This document shows positions 1,602-33,856 of a stretch of DNA of 34,325 nucleotides, piece after piece (within the stretch, counting starts at the first letter, position 1; the number at the start of each line of letters is the position of its first letter). The DNA lies in NCBI GenBank assembly GCA_046759805.1, contig JBHICX010000001.1:1-34325 (forward strand). The letters run 5' to 3'. The position numbers and the translations under genes are program-made. The notes beneath the pieces were generated by a model, which searched no databases, had not been told where the DNA came from, and saw only the letters and a list, made by a program, of their open reading frames with translations. This stretch comes from Kiloniellales bacterium. GTDB taxonomy: Bacteria; Pseudomonadota; Alphaproteobacteria; JBHICX01.

Positions 1602-3893
1602 ATGACCAGCAAGACGGCGGCGGCTCCTTATCTCCTGATTCGCCATCTAGGCCGCTGGGCGCGGCGTAGGGGGCTCGGGGGAAAGTTTGCCATCGCGCTC
1701 GCCGTCGCTTCAATTCTCTCCGGGTTCTTCACCTACGCCATCATCACCGACCTAGGGCCGTTCGGCAAGGAGGATCCGGAGACCCTATTCCACCTCCTCA
1801 CCATCGACCTGATCCTTATGCTGCTGGTCGGCGTCATCGTCGCCAAGCGGCTGGTGCAGGTCTGGACCGAGCGGCAGCGTGGATCCGCGGGCTCCAAGCT
1901 GCACATCAGGCTGGTCATCCTGTTCGGCGTCGTGGCGGTGACACCGGCCAGCATCGTGGCGGTCTTTTCGGTGCTGTTCTTCACCACCGGCATACAGTCC
2001 TGGTTCAACGAAAAGGTGAGCACCGCGATCAGCGAATCCCTGGAGGTGGCGCAATCCTACCTCGAGGAGCATCAGCAGAACATCCGCGCCGACGCCCTGG
2101 CCATGGCCAACGACTTGAACCGTGCCGCCGCGTTCATCGGCGACAACCCGCAGCGCCTGGGCCAGCTGCTTGCGCAGCAGACGGCGATCCGCTCGCTCAC
2201 CGAGGCGATCGTCTTTGATGGCAGCGGTCAGATCGTGGTCCGGACGGGCCTGACCTTCGCCACCGAGCTCAAGCAATTGCCGCAAGAATCGCTGGAAAAG
2301 GCTCGAGCCGGCGAGGTTGTGGTGCTGACCCGGGAAAGCGACGATCGTGTCAGCGCCCTGGTGCATCTCGAGCGCCTGCTGGACAGCTTTCTCCTCGTCG
2401 GCCGCTTCGTCGAGCCCAAGGTAGTGCGCAGCGTCGAGCGCACCCGCGAGGCGGTGGGCCAGTACGAAGCGCTGGAGCGCGAACGCACCGAACTGCAGAT
2501 CATGTTCAACCTGATCTTCTTCGTCGTGGCGCTGTTGTTCCTGCTGGCGGCGGTGTGGGGTGGCTTGATCCTGGCCAACCGCCTGGTGCGCCCGATCGGG
2601 GACCTGATCGCCGCCGCCGAACGGGTGCGCGCCGGTGACCTCAGCGCCCGGGTCCCGAGGATCGTCGGCACCGACGAGCTTGGCATGCTGGGGCGCGCCT
2701 TCAATCGCATGACCAACCAGTTGCGGGCCCAACGTGAGGAGCTGGTGGAGACCAACCGACAACTGGACGACCGCCGGCGCTTCACCGAGGCGGTACTGGA
2801 AGGGGTGTCAGCCGGGGTCATCGGACTCGACCGGGACGGCCAAATCAACCTGCCGAATCGGTCGGCCTCGACGCTGTTGGGGCTGGACCTGGACCACATG
2901 ATCGGCCGTGAGCTGGCCAAGGCGGTTCCGGAGATGGCGGGGCTGGTCGAAAAAGCCAGAGACCAGGCCGGCGGCAGCGGCGAGAGGCAGATCAAAGTCA
3001 TTCGCAAGGGGCGCACGCATACGCTTCTGGTGCGCATCGCCGTCGAGCGCATCAACCGCAAGGTCAGGGGATACGTGGTTACGTTCGACGACATCACGGC
3101 GCTGTTGCAGGCGCAGCGGACCGCCGCCTGGGCCGACGTCGCCCGGCGCATCGCGCACGAGATCAAGAACCCGCTGACGCCGATCCAGCTCTCGGCCGAG
3201 CGCTTGAAGCGCAAGTATCTGAAAGAGATCGACACCGACACCAGCATCTTTACCGCCTGTACCGACACCATCGTCCGTCAGGTCGCCGACATTCGGCGCA
3301 TGGTCGACGAATTCTCCGCCTTCACCCGCATGCCTGCCCCCGATATGAAGCGGGCCGACCTCGGCGAAATCTGCCAGCAGGCCGTGTTGCTGCAGCGCAA
3401 CGCCCATCCCAAGGTGACGTTCAATATGGACCTGCCCGAGGAAGGGATGATGCTGCCCTTCGACAACCGGCAGATTAGCCAGGCCCTGACCAACCTGCTG
3501 CAGAACTCGGTGCAGGCGATCGAGGGCCGCGAGGCGAAGCCAGGCGAAAAACTACCGCGCGGGCGAATCGACCTGCGGGTCCAGCGCCGGGACGGCCGGC
3601 TGGAGATCGCGGTCGAGGACAACGGCAGGGGGCTGCCCGATGAAGGACGCGAACGGCTGACCGAGCCTTACATGACCACGCGACCAAAGGGCACCGGCCT
3701 GGGTCTGGCAATCGTGAAGAAAATCATGGAAGATCACAACGGCGAGTTGGTGCTCGAAGATGGAGAGGCGGGCGGCGCCCGGGTCAAGTTGGTGTTCTTC
3801 AACCCGGACAAACCCGCGGACGGGGACAGACCGGCGCCGGCGCGGCGGCGGCGCCAGAGGCGCTCGGCAGAGTCTCGGGTCCGGCCGAGCTAG
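1602..3893 (+). CDS. ntrY: Membrane sensor histidine kinase NtrY
   Basis: N-terminal TM segments, a HAMP-like segment (RLVRPIGDLIAAAERVRAGDL), a PAS region, the H-box ARRIAHEIKNPLTPIQLSAERL, the N-box LTNLLQNSVQA and the G-box GTGLGLAIVKKIMEDHNG. Lies between ntrC and ntrX. Confidence 0.9.
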   Translation: MTSKTAAAPYLLIRHLGRWARRRGLGGKFAIALAVASILSGFFTYAIITDLGPFGKEDPETLFHLLTIDLILMLLVGVIVAKRLVQVWTERQRGSAGSKLHIRLVILFGVVAVTPASIVAVFSVLFFTTGIQSWFNEKVSTAISESLEVAQSYLEEHQQNIRADALAMANDLNRAAAFIGDNPQRLGQLLAQQTAIRSLTEAIVFDGSGQIVVRTGLTFATELKQLPQESLEKARAGEVVVLTRESDDRVSALVHLERLLDSFLLVGRFVEPKVVRSVERTREAVGQYEALERERTELQIMFNLIFFVVALLFLLAAVWGGLILANRLVRPIGDLIAAAERVRAGDLSARVPRIVGTDELGMLGRAFNRMTNQLRAQREELVETNRQLDDRRRFTEAVLEGVSAGVIGLDRDGQINLPNRSASTLLGLDLDHMIGRELAKAVPEMAGLVEKARDQAGGSGERQIKVIRKGRTHTLLVRIAVERINRKVRGYVVTFDDITALLQAQRTAAWADVARRIAHEIKNPLTPIQLSAERLKRKYLKEIDTDTSIFTACTDTIVRQVADIRRMVDEFSAFTRMPAPDMKRADLGEICQQAVLLQRNAHPKVTFNMDLPEEGMMLPFDNRQISQALTNLLQNSVQAIEGREAKPGEKLPRGRIDLRVQRRDGRLEIAVEDNGRGLPDEGRERLTEPYMTTRPKGTGLGLAIVKKIMEDHNGELVLEDGEAGGARVKLVFFNPDKPADGDRPAPARRRRQRRSAESRVRPS

Positions 3894-3914
3894 CGAAGGA
3901 AAAGGCGGCGGTTC

Positions 3915-5318
3915 ATGGCGCAGGACATTCTAATCGTTGACGACGAGGCGGATATTCGCACGCTGCTTGCGGGCACGCTGGAGGACGAGGGCTACCAGAC
4001 CCGCGGGGCACATGATGCCGACAGCGCCCTGGCAGCGATCCAGGCGCGGATGCCAAATCTGCTAATCCTGGACATCTGGCTGATGGGTAGCCGCCTGGAC
4101 GGCCTCGAGTTGCTGGAGCAGGTGAAGCGCGACTATCCGAACATGCAAGTGGTGATGATCAGCGGCCACGGCAATATCGAAACCGCGGTCAGCTCGATCA
4201 AGCTGGGGGCCTATGATTTCATCGAGAAGCCATTCCGTGCCGACCGCCTGTTGCTGATGGTCGAGCGGGCGATCGAGGCGGGCCGGATGAAGATGGAGAT
4301 CGAGGCGCTGAGGCATCGCGCCGGTCAGGACGACGAGATGATCGGCGTATCGTCGGCCATCGAGCAGCTTCGCCACGCCATCGACAAGGTCGCACCCACC
4401 GGTAGCCGCGTCTTGATCACCGGTCCGCCCGGCGCCGGCAAGGAGCTGGTCGCCCGCATGCTGCACGAGAAGTCGCGCCGCAACGACGGGCCATTCACCG
4501 TGCTCAACTGTGCCATGTTGCGCCCGGAGAACGTGGAGATCGAGCTATTCGGCCAGGAGCCCGGCGTCAACGGCGGCGACGGGCCGCGCAAGGTCGGCAC
4601 CTTCGAAAAGGCGCATGGCGGCACGTTGTATCTCGACGAAGTCGTCGACATGCCGCTGGAAACCCAGGGCAAGATCGTCCGCGCCCTGCAAGAGCAGACT
4701 TTCTCCCGCGTCGGCGGCAGCACGTTGGTGCAGGTGGACGTGCGCGTGATCGCCTCGTCCAGCCGCAACCTGGCGGAACAGATGGCGGCGGGAGAGTTCC
4801 GCCAGGACCTATACTACCGGCTGAACGTGGTGCCGATCACCGTGCCGCCGTTGCGCGAGCGCCCGCAGGATATCCCGGTACTCGTCGACCACTTCATGAT
4901 GCGTTCGGCGGAGAACGCCGGCGTTCCGGCGCGCGACATCGCCATGGACGCCATGGTCGCCCTGCAGGCCTACCAATGGCCCGGCAACGTGCGACAGCTC
5001 AAGAACGTCATCGACTGGCTCTTGATCATGGCGCCCGGTGGCGCGGACGAGCCGATCAAATCGGAAATGCTGCCGCCGGAGATCGGGGCGATTACGCCGC
5101 AGGTGCTGAGATGGGACAAGGGCGGCGAAATCATGGGCCTGCCGCTGCGCGACGCGCGCGAGGTGTTCGAGCGTGAGTACCTTATGGCCCAGGTCAATCG
5201 CTTTGGCGGCAATATCTCGCGTACCGCCTCGTTCGTCGGCATGGAACGCTCGGCGTTGCACCGCAAACTCAAGACCCTAGGCGTCCAGGACGCCGAAAAG
5301 CAAAAGGCCAACTCGTAG
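3915..5318 (+). CDS. ntrX: Response regulator NtrX (AAA+ domain lacking the GAFTGA loop)
   Basis: Receiver domain (ILIVDDEADIR, LDIWL). Walker A GPPGAGKE. ELFGQEPGVNGGDGPRKVGTFEKA replaces the GAFTGA motif, which is typical of NtrX. C-terminal HTH GNISRTASFVGMERSALHRKLKTLG. Confidence 0.9.
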   Translation: MAQDILIVDDEADIRTLLAGTLEDEGYQTRGAHDADSALAAIQARMPNLLILDIWLMGSRLDGLELLEQVKRDYPNMQVVMISGHGNIETAVSSIKLGAYDFIEKPFRADRLLLMVERAIEAGRMKMEIEALRHRAGQDDEMIGVSSAIEQLRHAIDKVAPTGSRVLITGPPGAGKELVARMLHEKSRRNDGPFTVLNCAMLRPENVEIELFGQEPGVNGGDGPRKVGTFEKAHGGTLYLDEVVDMPLETQGKIVRALQEQTFSRVGGSTLVQVDVRVIASSSRNLAEQMAAGEFRQDLYYRLNVVPITVPPLRERPQDIPVLVDHFMMRSAENAGVPARDIAMDAMVALQAYQWPGNVRQLKNVIDWLLIMAPGGADEPIKSEMLPPEIGAITPQVLRWDKGGEIMGLPLRDAREVFEREYLMAQVNRFGGNISRTASFVGMERSALHRKLKTLGVQDAEKQKANS

Positions 5319-11964: not shown

Positions 11965-12469
11965 GGGATGACTCGGTTCATTTTGTCGGTGGGGGCCTGT
12001 TATAGCGAATTCGCAATAGCATGGGGGAGCGATCCTGCCGTTGCCGCAGCCCCGGAGGGCGGTTTCGACGGCGTTCCTGTGGCGACCGAAAAATTGCATA
12101 AGGGATATTATGGATAATCCTATTTAAGTCTTAATTATAAATCGTTATCGTCCTTAATTCACGTTGCAGATTAAAATTGCACGCTTATTCCGCTACATCC
12201 GGATAGAACTGGCAGCGCGATCGTTGGGCGGCGGGCTAAGCCATGACGCTGGCCACCACGCGCAGTCGACATTGTTGGCTAACCCGTCAAGGAACGGGCG
12301 CCGCCGGTCGGCGCCACGCAATCGCTCAGTATCCACCGGATACTTTGTCGGTATCACGTGCGCGGATACGGATGGGCCGGTTCTCCCGAGTGCACGGATC
12401 TGGCCTCCCTTGTCCGACAGCCGCCCGCGGTTCCGGACGCGAAATAACGCCAATCATTCATTGTACCGA

Positions 12470-12483
12470 TTGATTCACGTCAA
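12470..12483. promoter_or_regulatory. FixK/FNR-type box candidate, TTGATTCACGTCAA (TTGA-N6-TCAA)
   Basis: 9/10 match to TTGAT-N4-ATCAA and a perfect TTGA-N6-TCAA. Lies about 150-160 bp upstream of the 12632/12644 start, in a non-coding leader. Confidence 0.35.
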
Positions 12484-12631
12484 TGCGCCTGAACGGGTGC
12501 TGGTATACGAAGCATCTTGAAGAATTTGGATGGCCGAAAGGTATCGTTTGGAAGAATCTTGCTTCGTGCCTTGCCGGAGTTGCATTTTGTTGCAGGTCAT
12601 GTGACCGGATATTGTTGGAAAACGAAACATA

Positions 12632-13126
12632 GTGAGCTCAGCCATGTCGAGACATCGCATCATCGGCCTGGTCGGCGCGTTGATCGTCTGGCTTCTGGGA
12701 ACGTTTTCGGCCGCCGCATCACCGGGCGGTCCGAATTGGTCCCAGACGGTCGACGGCATGCTGGTCCACCTGGGAATTATGTCGACCCAGGTAATGAGGC
12801 AACACCCGGACCAATATCCTGAGCATTTCATCGAGGGGGAACCCCCAGCAGGCAGACACATGTACCACGTTCTGGTGACCGTTTTCGAGCGCTCCAGCGG
12901 CGAGCGCATTACCAATGCCGATGTAGAAATGCGGGTTTCACCGATTGGCCTTGCCGGTCGGCAAAAGCATCTTCATGCGATGTCAGTCCGCGGCGCGGCT
13001 TGTTATTGCAATTACTTCTACATGCCGCCCACGGATAGCTATCGGATCAGCGTGCAAATCCGTCGGCCGGGGGTGCCGGTGGTGGCCCGAGCGAAATTCC
13101 TTTACACGCACCACCGCGGGCCCTGA
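12632..13126 (+). CDS. Hypothetical exported protein (possibly a YtkA/FixH-like Ig-fold, unverified)
   Basis: Signal peptide MSRHRIIGLVGALIVWLLGTFSAAA|SP, with an alternative ATG start at 12644. The beta-rich pattern HMYHVLVTVFERSSGERITNADVEMRVSPIG...YRISVQIRRPG resembles small periplasmic metal-handling domains. No family assignment is possible by eye. Confidence 0.55.
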   Translation: MSSAMSRHRIIGLVGALIVWLLGTFSAAASPGGPNWSQTVDGMLVHLGIMSTQVMRQHPDQYPEHFIEGEPPAGRHMYHVLVTVFERSSGERITNADVEMRVSPIGLAGRQKHLHAMSVRGAACYCNYFYMPPTDSYRISVQIRRPGVPVVARAKFLYTHHRGP

Positions 13127-13265: not shown

Positions 13266-13516
13266 GATCGCGAGGGTAAGCCGTGATTGTGTTTGCGCGC
13301 CGCGGTCAGGTGGTCGACCGTGGCCGCATGACTTCAGCAAGCGAAAGCCGTGACGCCGTCGGAGGTCCTGCCCTTTGACCGCGGAAATAGGAGCCGATTT
13401 CCCAGTTCCATTGGTACGACTCTTGCGGTCGCCGCGATTTACACCTCGATCACCATGCCGTCGTAGGCAGGCTCGACGCCGGGCAGACATTTGGCTGCCA
13501 GCCGGTCGAGTAGTCG
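13266..13516. repeat. Left copy of an imperfect ~250-bp direct repeat (partner at 18549-18797)
   Basis: By-eye alignment gives about 16 mismatches plus one 2-nt indel over ~250 nt (roughly 93% identity). Both copies are in the same orientation. Confidence 0.85.
13439..13516 (-). pseudogene. Orphan 3' fragment of the MBL-fold hydrolase gene (duplicate of the last ~25 codons of 18722-19489)
   Basis: Translates ...DRLAAKCLPGVEPAYDGMVIEV*, against ...DRLAAKCPPGVEPAYDGLVIEV* in the intact gene. Upstream of this the reading frame has no similarity to the MBL protein. Confidence 0.7.
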
Positions 13517-13606
13517 TCGCGCCCTTGCCGCGCCCGCCGGGCGGTCAGCTCCCGGTGGCGCTGCACCACACTGGTACGGGAGCGATGCGCGGTCGAGGCC
13601 ATGCCA

Positions 13607-13620
13607 TTGATGTAAATCAA
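13607..13620. promoter_or_regulatory. Perfect FNR/Anr/FixK-type box, TTGATGTAAATCAA
   Basis: Exact match to TTGAT-N4-ATCAA. AT-rich -10-like hexamers (GAAATA / TATTAA / TAATAA) lie 25-40 nt downstream. It is 133 nt upstream of the first cassette gene (13753). Confidence 0.5.
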
Positions 13621-13752
13621 TGCCGAACTTCCTTGTTGATGCTTGAAATATTAATAAAGGCTGTACCATTGCGCTGACGCGAACCGGCGGTGGGCCGGGA
13701 CGCGTAAGGGCGTTGGGCGAAGTCGCGTGACGTTAGGACGGTAGGCAGCGAC

Positions 13753-14106
13753 ATGAAGAGACGGTTTCTTCGCCGCCTGTTAGCCTGTCTCCTGGTGACC
13801 GCTCTCGTCACCGGCACGGGGGTGCCTGTGGCCATGGTCCAGGCCGGTCACGGTCACGGGGCAACGCCGGCCGACCAAGCTCAAGTAATGCCGGGCTGCG
13901 ATCCGGTCCAGGCGCTGGGCACGGGCTGCAAGTACTGCGCGCCGTGCGTTATGTTGTGTTGCGACGAGGTGATTGTCGCCGCCGCCCCCGCGCTCGAGCC
14001 CCCGCTGCCCGAACTCACGGTCGGTTTCGTCGACCGGACGCCGGGCGTCCGGCGTTCCATCGAGGCCAAGTTCCCTCGAGGTCCTCCCCATCCCTTCCAG
14101 GACTGA
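13753..14106 (+). CDS. Small secreted Cys-rich protein, DUF2946-like (tentative)
   Basis: Signal peptide MKRRFLRRLLACLLVTALVTGTGVPVAMVQA|GHGHG. Cys cluster CDPVQALGTGCKYCAPCVMLCC. Pro-rich tail ending ...FPRGPPHPFQD, reminiscent of the C.(Y/F)C ... PRAPP layout I remember for DUF2946. Confidence 0.6.
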   Translation: MKRRFLRRLLACLLVTALVTGTGVPVAMVQAGHGHGATPADQAQVMPGCDPVQALGTGCKYCAPCVMLCCDEVIVAAAPALEPPLPELTVGFVDRTPGVRRSIEAKFPRGPPHPFQD

Positions 14107-14307
14107 GACTTAGCGGCCGTTCCCGCAGGCCGCCGCAAGACCTCACAAAACACGGCATCTCCGCGGAACGGCGAGGTTGATCGCAGCATAGGCTGCTGTC
14201 GCGACCAACCGATGTCTCGGTCCGACTCGGCCCGCGCTCGGGCACGAGCCGGTCAAGGCATGTGCGAAATGACGTCGCGGCCGCAGCAACGGTAACGGAG
14301 GGAAGAG

Positions 14308-15135
14308 ATGGTTAGGGAAGATCCTGTCAACGGGACCCGGGACAGTCGTCAATCTCACCTGACGACGCGACGGGGTTTCGTCACCGGCCTCGGCTTTGGC
14401 GTGGTGAGTCTTTACGGTCTGTGGGCCGCTTACGGGGCCGCGCCGACCAGCCTCAAATTCCTGTCCGGCGCCGCGTCAGGCGGCATGGGAGCCGCAGGGC
14501 ACGGCCACGGCGGTCACGGCGGCGGAGGGATGTCGCGCGAGGAGTTCAACCGCCTGGCCGACGAGTTCTTCGAGGCCAACGCGCTTCCCGACGGCAGCGT
14601 GAAGCCGGTCCGTCGTAGGGTCGCGGCGATCTCGGGCCAAGCCCATGAGGGTCACGCAGATGAGCCGGAGATGTCCGCAGCCAAAGAGCACGAACACGGG
14701 CACGAGGCGGAGGCCCACGACCGTGGCGCTCGCGAGCCGAGGATGTCCATGGCCGAAGAGCACGAGCACGGGCCCGAGGCCGAAGCGCACGAACACGGTG
14801 CGGCCCCGCCGAGCATGTCCATGGCTGAAGAGCACGAGCACGGAGACGAAGAAGGGCCGATCGAGGTCTACGTCAGGGCCTCAAGGTACGGCTACGAGCC
14901 CGATGTGCTGCGGCTGGAGCCCAATATCCCCTACAAATTCAGGATGATGGCCGTCGATGCGGACCACGGCGTCTCAATCAGTATGCGCATGGGCAGCCAC
15001 ATGATGCGCTGCCGAGCGAGAGTTCTGACCGAAGCGATCCTGATGTTCACGGCGCCCGGCGAGTACCTGTGCTACTGCACCGTTTATTGCGGTGAGGGCC
15101 ATGACATGATGATGGGCACGATCGTCGTGGCATAG
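14308..15135 (+). CDS. CuA-type cupredoxin subunit II of a B-family-like heme-copper oxidase, with a Tat-like signal/anchor and a His-rich repeat linker
   Basis: The C-terminus PGEYLCYCTVYCGEGHDMMMGTIVVA aligns with ba3 CbaB PGEYRIICNQYCGLGHQNMFGTIVV. The full CuA ligand set is present: DADHGV His, then C-x3-C-x3-H-x2-M at 15076-15111. N-terminal TRRGFVTGLGFGVVSLYGLWAAYGA. RBS GGAGGGAAGAG. Confidence 0.88.
   Translation: MVREDPVNGTRDSRQSHLTTRRGFVTGLGFGVVSLYGLWAAYGAAPTSLKFLSGAASGGMGAAGHGHGGHGGGGMSREEFNRLADEFFEANALPDGSVKPVRRRVAAISGQAHEGHADEPEMSAAKEHEHGHEAEAHDRGAREPRMSMAEEHEHGPEAEAHEHGAAPPSMSMAEEHEHGDEEGPIEVYVRASRYGYEPDVLRLEPNIPYKFRMMAVDADHGVSISMRMGSHMMRCRARVLTEAILMFTAPGEYLCYCTVYCGEGHDMMMGTIVVA
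14671..14843 (+). repeat. 72-bp in-frame tandem repeat (about 2.4 copies) encoding MS(A/M)A(K/E)EHEHG(H/P)EAEAH..GA..P..
   Basis: Units start at 14671, 14743 and 14815 (ATGTCC...GAGCACGA(A/G)CACGG). They lie inside the linker of the cupredoxin gene. Confidence 0.8.
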
Positions 15136-15158
15136 CCCGCGACCGGAGGGGACGAGGC

Positions 15159-16829
15159 ATGACTGAGAGCAAGTTGGTCGAAGGCCTGAAGCGCCTGCCC
15201 GGCGGCGACAGGGCGCTGCTCGACGGCTTTGTCGCCATGGCCGTGCTCAGCCTGGGGCTCGGTCTCGTCTACGGCGCGCTGACGGCCTTCGCCCGCGCCG
15301 GCTTCATCACCCTGGAGCCCGAGGTCGCGTATCCGACGCTGACCCTCCACGGGGTCACGATCTTCTTCTACTGGCTCTACTTCGCCCAGGCGGGCCTGGT
15401 CCTCATCCTCGCCTGTGTGTACACCGAGGGCGCCAAGCGGCTGGCGTGGAGCCCGCTGGCGTGGCTCGGGCTTGGCCTCATGGTCGCGGGATTCGCCTTG
15501 AGCGAGCTGATGCCGATCATGGGCGCGGTCATGCTGTACGACGGCCAGCCGGAGCTGATCGGCTACGAGATGACGGAGGGCGGCCTGTTCTACGTCGGCT
15601 ACATCCTTCTCGGCCTGGGACTGTTTGTGGTCGGCGTATCCAGCATTTCCACCGCCCTCAAACCGCGCTTTGAAGGGAAGATCGAGTCCTGGTCATCGGT
15701 CAGCTTCGCCAGCGTCGCCTGGGCCGGCCTGCTCATGGTGAGCGCCATGGCCGCGATCAACGCCTTCCTGCCGGCGGCCTGGTGGGCATTCGGTTTCGGA
15801 CCAGCGCCATCGGGCTATACCATGAGCTGGCACGTGCTGTTCCACAATGTCCATTACCTGCCGCTGATGGCCACGGTGGTGCTGTGGTATGTGCTGATGG
15901 ACGAGCTGGCCGGCGTCGAGTCGATCTTCGGGCGCCGGTTTTCCAAGATCGTCTTCGCCCTCTATTTGATCTTCGTGCCGCCGACGTCGCTGTACCACAT
16001 GTTCCTGGAACCCAACCTCGCGGACTCGGTGAGGATACTGGGATCGTTGTTGTCGTTGTTCATCGGCGTGCCGACCGTGCTCGTCTTTTTGATCATCATC
16101 GCTTCGCTGGAGTCGCACGCCAGGGCGCACGGCGCCCGCGGCCTGTTCGGCTGGGTGCGCATGCTGCCCTGGCGCAATCCGGCGATGGCCGCGATCGGCA
16201 TGGCGGTGGTCAACCTGGCCCTCGGGGGCGCCTTTTCCTTCGTCCTGATCCAGGAGAAGCTGGCGCCGCTGTTGAGCGACACCTTCTTCGTCCCGGGCTA
16301 CTTCCACTTCCTGACCCTGGGCACGGTGACGCTCACCTTCATCGCCGCGTTCATGTACGTGATTCCGGGCCTGACCGGCCGTCAGCTGTGGAACCCCTCG
16401 CTGCTCGCCAAGCTGCCGTACATCGCGACCGTCGGCCTGCTGATCTTCGGCGGCGCCGGCATCCTCGCCGGCTACATGGGCGTGCCGCGGCGCCTGTTCG
16501 ACGTGAGCTACGAGGGCCGGGCGCCGGAGATCTGGCAAACGCTGATGTTCGTCGTCGGCATCGGCGCCGTGCTCATGACCGCCGCATTGGCGGCCTACGT
16601 CTTCGGCCTGGTTAGGACACTGTTCGGGCGCCCGAGCGAGGCCGGGGCCGAGACGGCCAACCTCGCGGCCGTGTCGTGGGGCGGGATCAGCGTCGGCCGC
16701 CAGGCGGCCTGGGTCGGGCCGCTGTCCGTGCTCGTCCTCATCGCCGCCATGTACGCGTTCACCGCGGTCGGCTTCGAGCTCATGCAAAGCCTGCCGATCG
16801 TGGCGACTGGCGGAGGCGGTGGACATTAG
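15159..16829 (+). CDS. Heme-copper oxidase superfamily subunit I, B-family (ba3)-like, with non-canonical active-site ligands
   Basis: Long collinear similarity to ba3 CbaA as I remember it: LTLHGV; ASLE..A...GARGLFGW.R.LPW.NPA; FVPG.FH...VTLT; LPNLTG/IPGLTG; VPRR. About 12-13 hydrophobic helices. Sits 23 nt after subunit II. See the findings for the Y279 and Y381 substitutions. Confidence 0.9.
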   Translation: MTESKLVEGLKRLPGGDRALLDGFVAMAVLSLGLGLVYGALTAFARAGFITLEPEVAYPTLTLHGVTIFFYWLYFAQAGLVLILACVYTEGAKRLAWSPLAWLGLGLMVAGFALSELMPIMGAVMLYDGQPELIGYEMTEGGLFYVGYILLGLGLFVVGVSSISTALKPRFEGKIESWSSVSFASVAWAGLLMVSAMAAINAFLPAAWWAFGFGPAPSGYTMSWHVLFHNVHYLPLMATVVLWYVLMDELAGVESIFGRRFSKIVFALYLIFVPPTSLYHMFLEPNLADSVRILGSLLSLFIGVPTVLVFLIIIASLESHARAHGARGLFGWVRMLPWRNPAMAAIGMAVVNLALGGAFSFVLIQEKLAPLLSDTFFVPGYFHFLTLGTVTLTFIAAFMYVIPGLTGRQLWNPSLLAKLPYIATVGLLIFGGAGILAGYMGVPRRLFDVSYEGRAPEIWQTLMFVVGIGAVLMTAALAAYVFGLVRTLFGRPSEAGAETANLAAVSWGGISVGRQAAWVGPLSVLVLIAAMYAFTAVGFELMQSLPIVATGGGGGH

Positions 16830-16849
16830 GTTCCGTGAGGAGGTAATCC

Positions 16850-17074
16850 ATGACGAAAGACGCCTGGCTGTTCGCGATCGTGTTCCTGGTCTGGCTGGTC
16901 CTGTCGGTCCTGTACTACACGGTGCCCATGATCTACATGCCGACCACGGGGCGCGTGTGGGGCCTGGGCGCGCTCCTGTTCCTGGTGCTCGCGGCCGTCG
17001 TTCTGTACGCGCAGCACAAGGGAAAGAGCCGGCGCGCTGCCGCCGAGTCCGAAGTGGCAGAGAGCCGAAAGTAA
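16850..17074 (+). CDS. Small two-TM membrane protein (candidate accessory oxidase subunit)
   Basis: Strong RBS GAGGAGG 7 nt upstream of the ATG. Two hydrophobic helices (AWLFAIVFLVWLVLSVLYYTV and VWGLGALLFLVLAAVVLYAQ) and a basic tail. Sits 20 nt after subunit I. Confidence 0.65.
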   Translation: MTKDAWLFAIVFLVWLVLSVLYYTVPMIYMPTTGRVWGLGALLFLVLAAVVLYAQHKGKSRRAAAESEVAESRK

Positions 17075-17265
17075 CCCCGAGAAGCGGAGGTCGTGGGGAA
17101 CGGTCGGCCGCCCAGGACGGCCGGTCCTGGGGGGGTGATCTACATCAATGACGGATCTGCCTGGAGGCGGATGAATGACAGGCTGGGGCCAAGTCCATAG
17201 GCAACGGATGGGACGAACGGCCCGCCGCCGACGCTATCGGCGTGCCCCCAGGGGAGAAGACGGGG

Positions 17266-18258
17266 ATGTCTCACTGGCATGTGAGCTTTGGCGGCGGCGT
17301 CCGCCTCGTTGTGACGGCCGTCGCGGCGGCCGCGGCCATGCAGGTCGCGATGGCGTGGGCGGACCACGCCCAGGGTCCGGTGAATGTGATCGGCGAACCG
17401 GAGTCGGCGGCAACAGTCGGCACCGACGACCCTGGGGCGGGCCAGGAGCCGAGGCTTCGCCTGGGCATGCCGGTCATGGACTCCGAGAACGGCATGCGGC
17501 TGTTCGCCGGGATGGGCTGTGTCGTGTGTCACGCGATCAACGGGGTGGGCGGGCACGATGCCAAGAACCTCGATGCCCACTCCACGCACCCCGTGGTCAG
17601 TGCCTTCGATTTCTCCGCCAAGATGTGGGCCATCCCCGCAGACATGGCGGGGGACCGGAAACGGGCGCTCGGTCATCGATTCGCATTCAGCGGCGATGAA
17701 CTGGCCGACCTCGCCGCCTTCGTGGGCGACGACGACCAGCAGCACAGGTTCACCGAAGCGCACATTCCACCCGAGATCAGGAAGCTGATGCGTCACAGCC
17801 ACGGCGGCAAACAGGCCCATCAGGACGAGCTGAGGAATTTCCAGCCCGAAGAGGTCTACATGGTGGCGCCGATGATGGAGCCCGAGGAGGGCATGCGGCT
17901 ATTCGTCAGCAAAGGCTGCGTCGTCTGTCACGCGATCAACGGCGTGGGCGGAGACGATGCCAAGAACCTCGATGCCGAGAGTCTCGCTGCCGGGAACCCA
18001 GACGCCCACTCCGGCCACACCTTTTTGAATCCTTTCGATTTCGCCGCCAGCATGTGGTCCGTGAGCCCGGGCATGATCGAGGCTCAGCACCGTATCGCGG
18101 GCCATCGGTTCCTGTTCACGGCCGTAGAGCTGTCCGACATCATCGCCTTCGTTCACGACGGCGAGCAGCAGAGAAATTTCACCGAGGCGCACGTTCCGCC
18201 CGAAATGAAGACCATCATCGACCAGACCCGCGCCGGCCAGTCGGCCGATCCGGACTAG
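17266..18258 (+). CDS. Periplasmic dihaem c-type cytochrome (two tandem class-I-like domains)
   Basis: Two CxxCH sites in near-identical contexts (GMGCVVCHAINGVGGHDAKNLDA and SKGCVVCHAINGVGGDDAKNLDA), each followed by FDF(S/A)A(K/S)MW as candidate Met ligands. Signal peptide MSHWHVSFGGGVRLVVTAVAAAAAMQVAMAWA|D. The ORF-track start at 17242 is also possible. Confidence 0.85.
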   Translation: MSHWHVSFGGGVRLVVTAVAAAAAMQVAMAWADHAQGPVNVIGEPESAATVGTDDPGAGQEPRLRLGMPVMDSENGMRLFAGMGCVVCHAINGVGGHDAKNLDAHSTHPVVSAFDFSAKMWAIPADMAGDRKRALGHRFAFSGDELADLAAFVGDDDQQHRFTEAHIPPEIRKLMRHSHGGKQAHQDELRNFQPEEVYMVAPMMEPEEGMRLFVSKGCVVCHAINGVGGDDAKNLDAESLAAGNPDAHSGHTFLNPFDFAASMWSVSPGMIEAQHRIAGHRFLFTAVELSDIIAFVHDGEQQRNFTEAHVPPEMKTIIDQTRAGQSADPD

Positions 18259-18548
18259 CCCGACCGCGCCGCGGGGCTGATTTTCAGTGCATTTGTCGCG
18301 GAGTTTGGCCCTGCGGGCGAGAGAGGATTCCATTTCGGTCGCGATGGCAGATAAGCCAGCAATCGAAAGCGTGGCAAGGACCATTGCGCAGATGGCTGTG
18401 CGAGCGATTCCGGTAACGCTATGGTTCGACATGGCTTACCTCCAGTCTCCACGTTTCGGTCCCGAATCCCCGTCGGTCATGGTGGGTCATTCGCCTATCA
18501 TGGCGAACGGTACGCGGCATCGAGGTAGGTCAACTTGGGAGTCGCCAC

Positions 18549-18797
18549 GATCGCGAGGGTAAGCCGTGACTGTGTTTGCGCGCCGCGGTCAGGTGGTCGA
18601 CCGTGGCCGCATGACTTCAACAGGCCAAAGTCTTGACGCCGTCGGAGGCCCTGCTTTTTGACCGCGGAAGTATGAGTCGATTTCCCAGTTCCATTGGTAC
18701 GACTCTTGCGGTCGCCGCGATTTACACCTCGATCACCAGGCCGTCGTAGGCAGGCTCGACGCCGGGCGGACACTTGGCCGCCAGCCGGTCGTAGTCG
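18549..18797. repeat. Right copy of the ~250-bp direct repeat (partner at 13266-13516)
   Basis: Covers about 173 nt downstream of the MBL gene plus its last ~25 codons. See the left copy. Confidence 0.85.
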
Positions 18798-19489
18798 AGG
18801 CTCGTGTTCATATGGGTTAGCACGGCCCGACCTGGCCGCAGGCGCTCGATCCAGCCAAGAGTCTTCTCCAGATGGGCATGGGTTGGGTGCGGCGCCTCGC
18901 GCAGGCAATCGACGATCCATAGGCCGATGCCGTCCAGCGCTTCGAAGGCCGCCTCCGGAAGCTCGACCAGGTCGGTCGAATAGGCCAGTTGCCCGAACCG
19001 GAACCCGAGCGTGGCGCCCGGAAAGCCGTGGTCCTGTTCGAACGGGCGGATGTCGATGTCCCCGACCGAGAATGGGCCGTCAATGATATGCGGCTCCACC
19101 AACGGCCCGTAGAAGTCTGATTCGCCTTCCATTCCCTCGACCGCGTACCCGAAGCGTTGGCGGATCTCCGTGAGCGTCCCGGCGTCGGCGTGAATCGGTA
19201 TCGGCCGCCCCGTGAGGCGCTTCATTTGCCGCAGGTCGTCGATGCCGTGCAGGTGGTCGGCATGGGCATGGGTGTAGAGCACCGCGTCCAGCCGGGTGAC
19301 CCCCGCAGCCAAGAGCTGCCGGCGCAGGTCCGGCGTGGTATCGACCACCAGGGTGGTATTGGCCTCTTGCACCAGGATCGAGGCTCGGAGCCGCCGGTTG
19401 CGCGGGTTCGCGGGATCGCAGTCGCCCCAGTCGCCGCCGATCTGCGGCACCCCGCCGGAGCCGCCGCAGCCCAGGATGGTCACCCGCAT
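18722..19489 (-). CDS. MBL-fold metallo-hydrolase (PhnP/YcbL-like)
   Basis: MRVTILGCGGSGGVP... and the HxHxDH motif YTHAHADHLHG. 255 aa. Lies directly downstream of tatD, as in many alphaproteobacteria. Confidence 0.85.
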   Translation of the reverse strand: MRVTILGCGGSGGVPQIGGDWGDCDPANPRNRRLRASILVQEANTTLVVDTTPDLRRQLLAAGVTRLDAVLYTHAHADHLHGIDDLRQMKRLTGRPIPIHADAGTLTEIRQRFGYAVEGMEGESDFYGPLVEPHIIDGPFSVGDIDIRPFEQDHGFPGATLGFRFGQLAYSTDLVELPEAAFEALDGIGLWIVDCLREAPHPTHAHLEKTLGWIERLRPGRAVLTHMNTSLDYDRLAAKCPPGVEPAYDGLVIEV

Positions 19490-32268: not shown

Positions 32269-32358
32269 TGGCGGATGGGGTGGGATTCGAACCCACGAGG
32301 GGGCTCACCCCCTGCCGGTTTTCAAGACCGGTGCCTTCAACCGCTCGGCCACCCATCC
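32269..32358 (-). tRNA. tRNA-Ser (anticodon UGA), CCA encoded
   Basis: The reverse complement folds as acceptor GGATGGG/CCCATCC, D-arm GGCCGAGCGGTTGAAGGC, anticodon stem-loop CCGGT-CTTGAAA-ACCGG, a long variable arm CAGGGGGTGAGCCCCCTC, T-arm GTGGG-TTCGAAT-CCCAC, discriminator G, then CCA. Confidence 0.93.
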
Positions 32359-32542: not shown

Positions 32543-33856
32543 TCATCGGTTCTTTTCAGGACCAATGATCAGTCCCCGTTTCGCGAGATCCGCCACGATG
32601 GTGCCGACGTCGTGTTCTATCTGTGCTTCAGGAACCGTGGGGAATGCCTTTTGCAGCACGTCCATGGCGTCTTGCAACCGAATCGGTTGGTCGAGCAACC
32701 GCCACAGCGCCGCGCCAACAAAATTGAGATGATAGATCGCCTCGCCGGCAGAACTGACCAGGAACAGCTCGTCACCCACCCGACGCTCGTGGATGCCCGA
32801 GGCGCGCCGGAGATCACCCGTCACCGCGCCGTCCGGCGACTTCCCACTGACGGATGCGCGTGCGGAACGCTCCGGTACGCAGGATCGGCGGCGCGCGGGC
32901 CAGCCCTTGAACCTTTGCCTGAGCAACTCTGCGGCTTCGTCGGCGGCGCCGTAGCGCAGCCTGAAACATTGTGCGGCTTCAACCAAGTTGTGAAGACGCT
33001 CGAGAATATCGGTGGCCGGAACCTTGCCGGCGAAGTTCTGCAAAATCACTCGCTTCAGCATCTCGCTCCTATTGACCGGCGTCAACTCCGGCCGGCCGCC
33101 CGGTTCGCGACGTAGAAGGACGAACGCGCCGATCGGGGCTTCCTTGCCCTTGACCGCCAGGTTCGCAGCGTCAACCTCCAGGTAAATGAAGCGTTGGTTG
33201 CGTAGCCCCGAGTGGCGGCGCACGTAATTCCGGAACTCGGCCGCGACGCCGTCCGGTAGTGGGCGCCGCAGTCGCGGCAGGACGCCGGGAGCCACGGCCG
33301 TGTTGGCGCGGCTTTTGATCGGCAGGACGTCATCGGCGTAAACCCGCATGCCGGCCGCTGCCAGGTGACCGGAAAGCAGGCTTTTTCCCGCCTCGTAGCG
33401 GCTCGGAAAGACGACAAGCCGGCCAGCGAACTCGGCCGCGGCGGCGTGCAGGTGGCACAACAGCGACGGATCGGCCGCCACCGACGACTTGATCAAATCG
33501 ACGATGAAGCTGCAGACCGCATCGACCTCATTGCGGTACACGACCATTGACGACCGCCAATACGACTCCAGGCCGTACCCCTTGGAGGTCTTGCGGATGG
33601 TTATGATTGGCGGCGTTTCAGGTGCAGCCGAGACGTCGCGACACCGCCAGCCGCGGAGTACCGCGGCGATGGGTGCCGCCAAAATATCGCAGCCAATCAG
33701 GGCGACCGGTCGGGTCAGCGGTTCGAAAAGCAGCAGCATCGCAGACATCGTATCGGACAGGCCCGGCGCAGTCACGCCGCTGGGGCCGCCAACGTCAAGG
33801 ATCGCTGGCGGCCTCGAACGAGATGATAGTAGCGTAGGCGCCGAGCAGACCGGCAC
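32543..33856 (-). CDS. Fusion protein: HprK-related (P-loop) kinase-like domain plus a C-terminal PqqD/RRE-like domain
   Basis: The central LHAAAAEFAGRLVVFPSRYEAGKSLLSGHLAAAGMRVYADDVLPI resembles the HPr-kinase C-terminal P-loop region. The C-terminal ~90 aa (VGDELFLVSSAGEAIYHLNFVGAALWRLLDQPIRLQDAMDVLQKAFP...IEHDVGTIVADLAKRGLI) has the PqqD-family pattern. The start is uncertain, with alternative ATGs at 33748 and 33739. Confidence 0.6.
   Translation of the reverse strand: MPVCSAPTLLSSRSRPPAILDVGGPSGVTAPGLSDTMSAMLLLFEPLTRPVALIGCDILAAPIAAVLRGWRCRDVSAAPETPPIITIRKTSKGYGLESYWRSSMVVYRNEVDAVCSFIVDLIKSSVAADPSLLCHLHAAAAEFAGRLVVFPSRYEAGKSLLSGHLAAAGMRVYADDVLPIKSRANTAVAPGVLPRLRRPLPDGVAAEFRNYVRRHSGLRNQRFIYLEVDAANLAVKGKEAPIGAFVLLRREPGGRPELTPVNRSEMLKRVILQNFAGKVPATDILERLHNLVEAAQCFRLRYGAADEAAELLRQRFKGWPARRRSCVPERSARASVSGKSPDGAVTGDLRRASGIHERRVGDELFLVSSAGEAIYHLNFVGAALWRLLDQPIRLQDAMDVLQKAFPTVPEAQIEHDVGTIVADLAKRGLIIGPEKNR

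Follow-up and report, generated by a model that had tools for sequence, protein, structure and literature searches.

What does an enzyme built like a haem-copper oxidase do when two of its active-site histidines have been exchanged for tyrosine? The question is raised by a cassette of five plus-strand genes at positions 13753-18258 of the stretch of DNA analysed here (the window), which is the complete 34,325-bp contig of a metagenome-assembled genome (MAG) labelled Kiloniellales bacterium. The cassette encodes a small Cys-rich secreted protein, a subunit II with a CuA domain, the variant subunit I, a small subunit with two transmembrane helices and a dihaem cytochrome c. The best explanation of the whole, to which a probability of about 0.5 can be attached, is an acquired three-subunit ba3-like oxidoreductase operon with accessory genes and a role in peroxide/O2 stress. 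The parts of this explanation differ in strength, with the identity and architecture of the operon held with high confidence and the peroxide/O2-stress chemistry proposed tentatively.

A ba3-related subunit I with a remodelled catalytic site

By fold and profile, subunit I is a member of the haem-copper oxidoreductase superfamily, with at least 12 transmembrane helices, a match to PF00115 (COX1) across residues 24-472 (E 1.3e-41) and an AlphaFold2 (AF2) model with a predicted template modelling score (pTM) of 0.86. Its best sequence match among solved proteins is subunit I of the Thermus ba3 oxidase (E 2e-31), and ba3 is also the best structural match (Foldseek TM 0.77 at 22% identity), with the A-type oxidases ranking below it and no NO reductase (NOR) present among the top 50 structural matches. 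Based on the closest relative and the CuA-containing subunit II, the enzyme is related to the B-family. Confidence in the AlphaFold model drops below 50 at residues 221-225 (W224) and 274-281 (Y279/H280), and the rest of the membrane core is confidently modelled.

For both of the large subunits the closest described system is the ba3 oxidase of Thermus thermophilus (B-family; cbaB/cbaA plus the small subunit IIa), with which the cassette shares the order of subunit II before subunit I, a small hydrophobic subunit and the lack of a subunit III. In addition, the two histidines of the low-spin haem, the Arg pair and H-x3-Y are common to both. Unlike ba3, the small subunit in the window has two transmembrane helices and is encoded downstream, and subunit II carries a long His-rich linker. 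The initial annotation had found that the gene layout matched no nameable oxidase or NOR operon, a view that cannot be maintained, as the succession of subunit II, subunit I and small subunit is an ordinary B-type layout and ba3 is the best match for both subunits. Its further observation that genes for subunit III, ctaA/ctaB, Sco and PCuAC are lacking is correct for the 34-kb contig, as distinct from the remainder of the genome; a B-type oxidase has no subunit III in any case.

The most unusual differences lie in the catalytic site, as seen in an alignment of subunit I to ba3, with the residue numbering and roles of the Thermus enzyme. The low-spin haem ligands H72 and H386 are kept as H64 and H383, the CuB ligands H233 and H283 as H229 and H280, the cross-link tyrosine Y237 as Y233, and the haem-propionate Arg pair R449/R450 as R444 and R445. 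In contrast, the CuB ligand H282 is replaced by Tyr279 and H384, the proximal ligand of the O2-binding haem, by Tyr381, so that four of the six canonical histidines (H64, H229, H280 and H383) remain and the set of six that characterises A-, B- and C-type oxidases is broken. Two further replacements are His232 for V236, which lies beside the binuclear centre and has been targeted in many ba3 mutant structures, and, in the core family, Asn230 for P234.

The altered residues are not peculiar to the window. Across 120 database homologues (≥59% identity), H64, H229, H232, Y233, Y279, H280, Y381, H383, R444 and R445 never vary, and the same holds for 84 subunit I sequences derived from the loci described below, including those from Thermaceae and Thermoplasmatota MAGs. 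In a profile search over 1.84 billion representatives, from which the full-length 50%-identity representatives scoring at least 200 bits were examined, the H-x-x-H-Y / Y-H / Y-x-H signature was present in every full-length match down to ~200 bits except for three (P0136 and P0149, for which the alignment fails at helix 10, and P0137, which ends before helix 10), and the sole position within it to vary was Asn230, in the more distant subgroups. Below ~200 bits there is an abrupt switch to the canonical HH/HxH, with motifs of either the ba3 type (GHPxVYFWL) or the GHxxQY/QQ type, and no intermediates with only one of the two tyrosines occurred among the full-length sequences listed. Due to the invariance of the signature and the lack of such intermediates, the Tyr, Tyr and His changes look like a co-adapted set as opposed to the product of decay. 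In the nearest canonical-histidine neighbours of the variant clade (P0158, P0160, P0171 and P0184; P0166, P0185 and P0204), which are possibly members of eNOR-like families, helix 6 reads GHxxQY(V/I)N or GHxxQQ(V/I)N, with Gln where the clade has His232 and ba3 has V236.

Several features adjoining the catalytic site are retained in whole or in part. The H229-x3-Y233 motif, which might form the His-Tyr cross-link, is invariant in the clade, and the kept haem-propionate Arg pair indicates that two haems are probably retained. Two positions of the K-channel are kept as T306 (ba3 S309) and Y244 (ba3 Y248), while V309, V240 and I312 place hydrophobic side chains where ba3 has T312, Y244 and T315, so that protons may take another path.

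The CuA ligands of subunit II (H220, C257, C261, H265 and M268) are all present and are invariant in 59 homologues. Pfam and NCBIfam returned a sub-threshold CoxB match only for this subunit, and the best PDB match of the C-terminal domain is the CuA domain of ba3 (E 3e-9), with the ligands aligned. As was initially proposed, the electron-input path is therefore intact and the catalytic centre rewired, since the CuA and low-spin haem ligands and the two haem-c motifs of the cytochrome are kept.

Among described enzymes, the B-type-derived NORs offer the nearest parallel. The eNOR, sNOR, bNOR, nNOR and gNOR families, proposed or shown to be NO reductases, are described as having no active-site tyrosine, and the active-site histidines are completely conserved in all families except gNOR, which has one active-site His replaced by Asp and a cupredoxin subunit without CuA ligands (Murali et al. 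2024, PMC11214002). The clade resembles these families in its B-type origin, CuA-type subunit II, remodelled active site and occurrence mostly in MAGs, but differs in keeping the Tyr, in replacing two His by Tyr and in having copper genes rather than denitrification genes as recurrent neighbours. Compared by their published definitions, eNOR, sNOR, bNOR and nNOR are ruled out by the retained Y233 and the two replaced histidines, and gNOR by replacements that are Tyr at two positions and by the intact CuA ligands. Membership in cNOR or qNOR is likewise rejected based on the kept Tyr, the lack of a Glu at the corresponding position, the CuA-type subunit II, where those NORs have a cytochrome c or a fused subunit, and the lack of any NOR among the top 50 structures; cNOR and qNOR have their kinship with the C-family.

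No described family carries the Tyr variants, in agreement with the initial annotation, and a full-text literature search found no description of a Tyr-variant family; the more promising papers concern other subjects (eNOR in Ferrigenium and a ligand-less COX1 relic in Acetobacter). The sequences thus appear to form a widespread, apparently undescribed ba3-related clade. The six haem-copper histidines have been held to be near-universal, with gNOR and its single His-to-Asp change as the sole published exception found, and a clade spanning several phyla provides a test case for how axial ligands tune O2, NO and peroxide chemistry. Databases give its members generic names (‘cbb3-type’ or ‘ba3-type cytochrome c oxidase subunit I’), and, because pipelines apply such labels, metabolic reconstructions probably miscount the clade as aerobic respiration.

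A conserved three-gene core, its insertion and its neighbourhoods

A genome scan identified 80 loci, for which neighbours were determined by tblastn and by clustering of gene calls filtered on the GC content of third codon positions (GC3). The core of subunit II, subunit I and small subunit is adjacent in every one of the loci where sequence is available, with subunit II directly 5’ of subunit I wherever sequence exists upstream (77 of 77 loci) and the small-subunit gene directly 3’ of it in 76 of the 80, the remaining four stopping at contig edges. The core occurs in the Alpha-, Beta- and Gammaproteobacteria, the Thermaceae and one Thermoplasmatota MAG. Carriers in culture, which make the clade experimentally tractable, include Azospirillum brasilense, on whose chromids the module lies near an ICMT gene, as well as Tabrizicola, Stagnihabitans tardus and Neotabrizicola.

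The two outer genes of the cassette have a much narrower distribution. A dihaem cytochrome c lies directly downstream only in L091, whose subunit I is 86% identical to that of the window, and in L006, with L007, L008 and L017 carrying single-domain relatives in the vicinity, and the Cys-rich gene was found elsewhere only in L003 and on one 1.2-kb contig. In L091, a Rhodospirillales MAG and the closest relative, the cytochrome (3360-4318) is split over two frames near 3677-3680, reflecting a frameshift or an assembly error. The operon is a three-gene core with variable, lineage-specific accessories.

At the locus in the window, the five genes arrived together. A 243-nt direct repeat, the copies of which are 93% identical, brackets positions 13509-18548, and no genes other than the five of the cassette lie in the 5,040 nt that separate the copies. 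The right copy consists of the true 3’ end of a gene for an MBL-fold protein and the 173 nt downstream of it, and the left copy of a displaced pseudo-3’ end of the same gene with its downstream sequence, such that a minus-strand open reading frame (ORF) at 13439-13669 terminates in ...LAAKCLPGVEPAYDGMVIEV, as does the MBL protein. The rest of the contig is housekeeping in nature, with ntrC, ntrY/X, trkA, hflX and mazG on one flank and MBL, tatD, metG, holB, tmk, dacC and glnA on the other. Because the direct repeat encloses only the five genes amid a housekeeping region, the block is recognized as horizontally acquired and inserted as a unit, though no integrase is present in the 5.0-kb insertion. 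The 7% divergence between the repeat copies suggests that the inserted DNA came from a related genome and carried a copy of the target with it. An assembly artefact is an unlikely source of the repeat, as the copies differ at ~7% of positions, and an independent run, in which the Cys-rich gene is assembled together with the gene next to it on the downstream side (presumably subunit II), also counts against it. The self-contained unit of the initial annotation is confirmed here, where the repeat bounds exactly the five genes, and does not extend to the family, as the search of neighbourhoods across taxa shows only the core to be conserved and the cytochrome and Cys-rich genes to be rare.

The regions around the core differ between two clades of loci. 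In the clade of the window (L001-L021), the flanks are unrelated between genomes. Of 78 loci, 25 have at least one copper marker within 8 kb of the module, as do 18 of the 47 with at least 10 kb of flank, and all of these copper-linked loci belong to the clade L022-L077, comprising Burkholderiales, Rhodoferax, Competibacteraceae, Rhodobacterales (with the cultured Tabrizicola and Stagnihabitans) and Hyphomicrobiales. A YHS/HMBD P1B-ATPase is present in 22-26 loci, where, by a rough estimate, any one gene would be expected to lie within 8 kb of such an ATPase by chance in ~1% of cases, and the other copper neighbours include a CueR-like MerR-family regulator, CopZ/HMA, a multicopper oxidase, CusF and DUF411/CopG. 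DUF305, Met-rich periplasmic proteins, ICMT with DUF2933, and SHOCT complete the copper-homeostasis genes of this clade. The arrangements differ between orders, so the copper context is not a single inherited island.

The association suggests that, at the family level, the enzyme belongs to the copper response, and the recurrent placement beside copper genes points to a possible redox component of envelope copper defence that has gone unrecognised. Known copper-resistance modules (CopA/PcoA, CusF, CopG/DUF411, CueR and P1B-ATPase) share this neighbourhood in about one third of the loci and have no homology to the variant oxidase. The initial annotation had suggested dedicated copper handling by the His-, Cys- and Met-rich accessory sequences, a proposal that is right in its general direction but on other grounds, those of the copper-resistance genes at the 25 loci, none of which is in the window's clade; a supply of copper to the enzyme by the accessories is conjectural. 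In L010-L016, which are marine Gammaproteobacteria MAGs, the module lies beside a glyoxalase-II-like MBL gene with no copper genes flanking it, and sequence inspection of the other neighbours shows a resemblance to mscL, a TlpA-like thioredoxin and an FAD oxidoreductase; the small subunit in these loci is about twice as long (126-140 aa).

Candidate chemistries of the remodelled site

Reduction of peroxide or O2 under oxidative or copper stress is favoured over the reduction of NO. In this scheme, electrons from the periplasm would pass from the dihaem cytochrome c, the probable donor, to CuA, on to the low-spin haem (H64, H383) and then to the remodelled site, where Tyr381, in place of histidine, would hold the high-spin haem. 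The distal site would be formed by H229, the gained H232 and H280, with Tyr279 standing in for the third canonical His, and the three histidines, with or without Y279, may bind a metal, while Tyr233 stays at the position of the His-Tyr cross-link in oxidases. Tyrosinate ligation could, speculatively, lower the potential of the haem and favour ferric and ferryl states. In the least certain step, peroxide, or O2 by way of peroxide-level chemistry, would be reduced with high-potential periplasmic electrons; peroxide-level chemistry is proposed because a tyrosinate haem should be hard to reduce, favouring the ferric and ferryl forms, which would be better matched to peroxide reduction from high-potential donors than to a ferrous haem's binding of O2 or NO. 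A role in stress fits the copper context and the AhpD-like CMD genes found near the module in five loci.

The scheme in its full form, with a tyrosinate haem and a site of three His and one Tyr that takes electrons from cytochrome c, or directly from Cu(I) on the His/Met-rich subunit II, and destroys peroxide or reduces O2 as part of the envelope defence against copper and oxidative stress, is a doubtful proposition. If true, it would add both a novel form of catalysis to the oxidase scaffold and a hitherto unknown component to copper resistance. The site would have a likeness to catalases and other tyrosinate-ligated haem enzymes, a general analogy, in the proximal Tyr predicted for the high-spin haem and, in the core family, in distal His and Asn residues. 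The fold is unrelated to theirs, and the predicted haem would lie within the membrane scaffold of an oxidase, with CuA and a low-spin haem supplying the electrons.

Several points weigh against a peroxide/O2-stress enzyme. The members of the clade are known as sequences, the ligation of the haem by Tyr381 and the metal, if any, of the distal site are predictions, and the AF2 model is of low confidence at 274-281, around Y279 and H280. The K-channel appears only partly kept, placing energy coupling in doubt, and the idea of peroxide as a substrate derives from general haem chemistry. The copper context is lacking from the clade of the window and from the window itself, and the copper count was made on related genomes, so that the independent events behind it are far fewer than 25. 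Further, a site with three His and an oxygen donor would resemble FeB of the NO reductases, which favours an NO-reducing enzyme.

The least unlikely of the alternatives, and one to be taken seriously, is a new B-type-derived family of NO reductases, in which non-haem iron on H229, H232 and H280 plus Y279 would support the conversion of NO to N2O. Every other B-type-derived family with an altered site has been proposed or shown to be an NO reductase (PMC11214002), and the distal site would parallel the three His and one Glu of FeB in cNOR. An FNR/Crp-type regulator is encoded near the module in L084, and in L002 a reading of translations shows another such regulator close by, together with a hemerythrin-like gene. 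However, the described NOR families have no active-site Tyr, while the clade keeps H229-x3-Y233 in every sequence, and the genes that recur across the 80 neighbourhoods are those for copper, with no recurrence of nir, nor or nos. A Tyr-ligated haem should also, on general chemical grounds, resist reduction to the ferrous state that binds NO.

Less likely again is a membrane-bound cuprous oxidase, in which Cu(I) held on the linker of subunit II would be oxidised via CuA and the electrons passed to O2 or H2O2, detoxifying copper. Such a function would account for the copper islands of the Burkholderiales, Rhodobacterales, Competibacteraceae and others, and nearly every member has His/Gly- and Met-rich segments in its subunit II, the copy in the window having three MSxAxEHEHG repeats, in addition to a conserved His ahead of the MxxEEF helix. 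At the window locus and in its closest relatives, however, a dedicated cytochrome c accompanies the operon and copper genes are missing, the His/Met-rich linker differs greatly in length and make-up between homologues, and the binding of Cu(I) is a supposition.

It is very improbable that the enzyme is a respiratory O2 reductase of the ordinary ba3 type with a tolerance for unusual ligands. The relationship to ba3 and the retention of CuA, the low-spin ligands, H-x3-Y and the Arg pair are what such an enzyme would be expected to display, but every member has lost two of the six histidines to Tyr, one of them the proximal ligand of the O2-binding haem, at positions reported as completely conserved except in gNOR (Murali et al. 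2024, PMC11214002), and the K-channel is partly hydrophobic. Least credible of all is a degenerate, non-catalytic relic that serves in structure, sensing or metal storage, since, even if some ‘deranged’ COX1-like proteins, such as one from Acetobacter, have lost canonical ligands (cited in PMC10715153), the substitutions here are specific, invariant and always Tyr and are accompanied by a gained His, and conservation across phyla extends to CuA, to the ligands of the low-spin haem and to the small subunit, a combination that argues for selection for a defined site and not for decay.

Gene features and accessory proteins

The coordinates of the cassette and its borders are collected in Table 1. 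The five plus-strand ORFs and the gaps between them (201, 23, 20 and 191 nt) agree exactly with those first annotated, where the last gap presumes that the cytochrome starts at the ATG at 17266, the start with the better Shine-Dalgarno sequence. All five ORFs pass a GC3-based coding test and have homologues elsewhere, and thus represent real genes. Strong Shine-Dalgarno sequences precede subunit II (GGAGGG), subunit I (GGAGGGG) and the small-subunit gene (GAGGAGG), the last having been correctly described as such. Scans for promoters and terminators gave no signal above the shuffled expectation and no operon boundaries.

Table 1. Features of the five-gene cassette and its surroundings in the window
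Feature	Position	Strand	Remarks
Small secreted Cys-rich protein, 117 aa	13753..14106	+	Sec-like signal; 2 relatives
Subunit II, 275 aa	14308..15135	+	C-terminal CuA cupredoxin domain; ba3 = best PDB match
Subunit I, 556 aa, B-type-related	15159..16829	+	PF00115; H-N-x-H-Y / Y-H / Y-x-H signature
Conserved small subunit with two transmembrane helices, 74 aa	16850..17074	+	Directly 3’ of subunit I in 76/80 loci
Dihaem c-type cytochrome, 338/330 aa	17242/17266..18258	+	Two CVVCH motifs; GTG alternative start 17242
Left 243-nt direct repeat copy	13266..13508		93% identical to 18549-18791
Right 243-nt direct repeat copy	18549..18791		Overlaps true MBL-fold gene 3’ end
MBL-fold gene	18722-19489	-	3’ end lies in right repeat copy
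orf164, hypothetical secreted protein	12632..13126	+	Low-GC stretch just outside repeat-bounded block

Subunit II is composed of an N-terminal anchor with the sequence TTRRGF, a His/Gly-rich stretch, a set of repeats and the CuA domain at the C-terminus. The repeats are three His-rich units of 24 aa (72-nt tandem units, 14641-14856) beginning MS(A/M)A(K/E)EHEHG, and the N-terminal 185 aa of the window copy contain 16 His. A His residue conserved in subunit II immediately precedes the likewise conserved MxxEEF...PDGSV helix. Ahead of the membrane anchor, a motif H-[FL]-T-T-R-R-G-F is conserved (14356-14380; residues 17-25). The designation of this protein as a CuA cupredoxin with a twin-arginine translocation (Tat) signal stands with regard to the intact CuA site and the TTRRGF of the window copy; with regard to the Tat signal it is questionable, as the twin arginine is missing in at least 16 of the 59 homologues (TLRPGF, TTRPGV, STHKGF and similar) and the hydrophobic stretch that follows is highly conserved, as would be the case for a retained membrane anchor. 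Given these homologues, TTRRGF may be a functional motif at the cytoplasmic face instead of, or besides, a Tat signal.

The small subunit has two hydrophobic spans and a motif conserved across 52 homologues (D..L...VF.VW..LA..YAT.PM..MPG.A.VWG.GA.). Pfam and NCBIfam contained no family for this protein, for the Cys-rich protein or for orf164. The cytochrome is built from two duplicated class-I cytochrome c domains, in each of which CVVCH is followed by F-D-F-x-A-x-M-W, and the duplication is apparent in an internal DNA repeat (17469-17577 and 17868-17976, 84% identical); a sequence search of the PDB returned no relative. Each half also has a conserved GHRFxF(S/T)xxELxD(I/L)xAFV motif after the haem domain. 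The Cys-rich protein possesses a Sec-like signal (MKRRFLRRLL...AMVQA), a GHGHG motif and a CxxxxPCVMxC cluster. Its only two relatives are P0122 (57% identity) and a protein of L003 (6439-6792; 36% identity) encoded in the same place upstream of subunit II, and C59, C65, C69 and a C-terminal RGPP are invariant.

Outside the block, the stretch 12100-13126 has a GC content of 0.53-0.59, compared to ~0.66 elsewhere, and holds orf164. Relatives of orf164 lie beside the variant oxidase in three copper-context loci (L034, L043 and L064) and beside a CMD gene in L089, and the gene may be functionally linked to the cassette. An equivalence of orf164 to a 134-aa periplasmic protein common in the copper-island loci was rejected, as BLASTP detected no relation between the two. 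Elsewhere on the contig and unrelated to the cassette, a 437-aa ORF with a C-terminal PqqD domain (32543-33856, minus strand) adjoins a tRNA-Ser(TGA) gene (32269-32358, minus strand).

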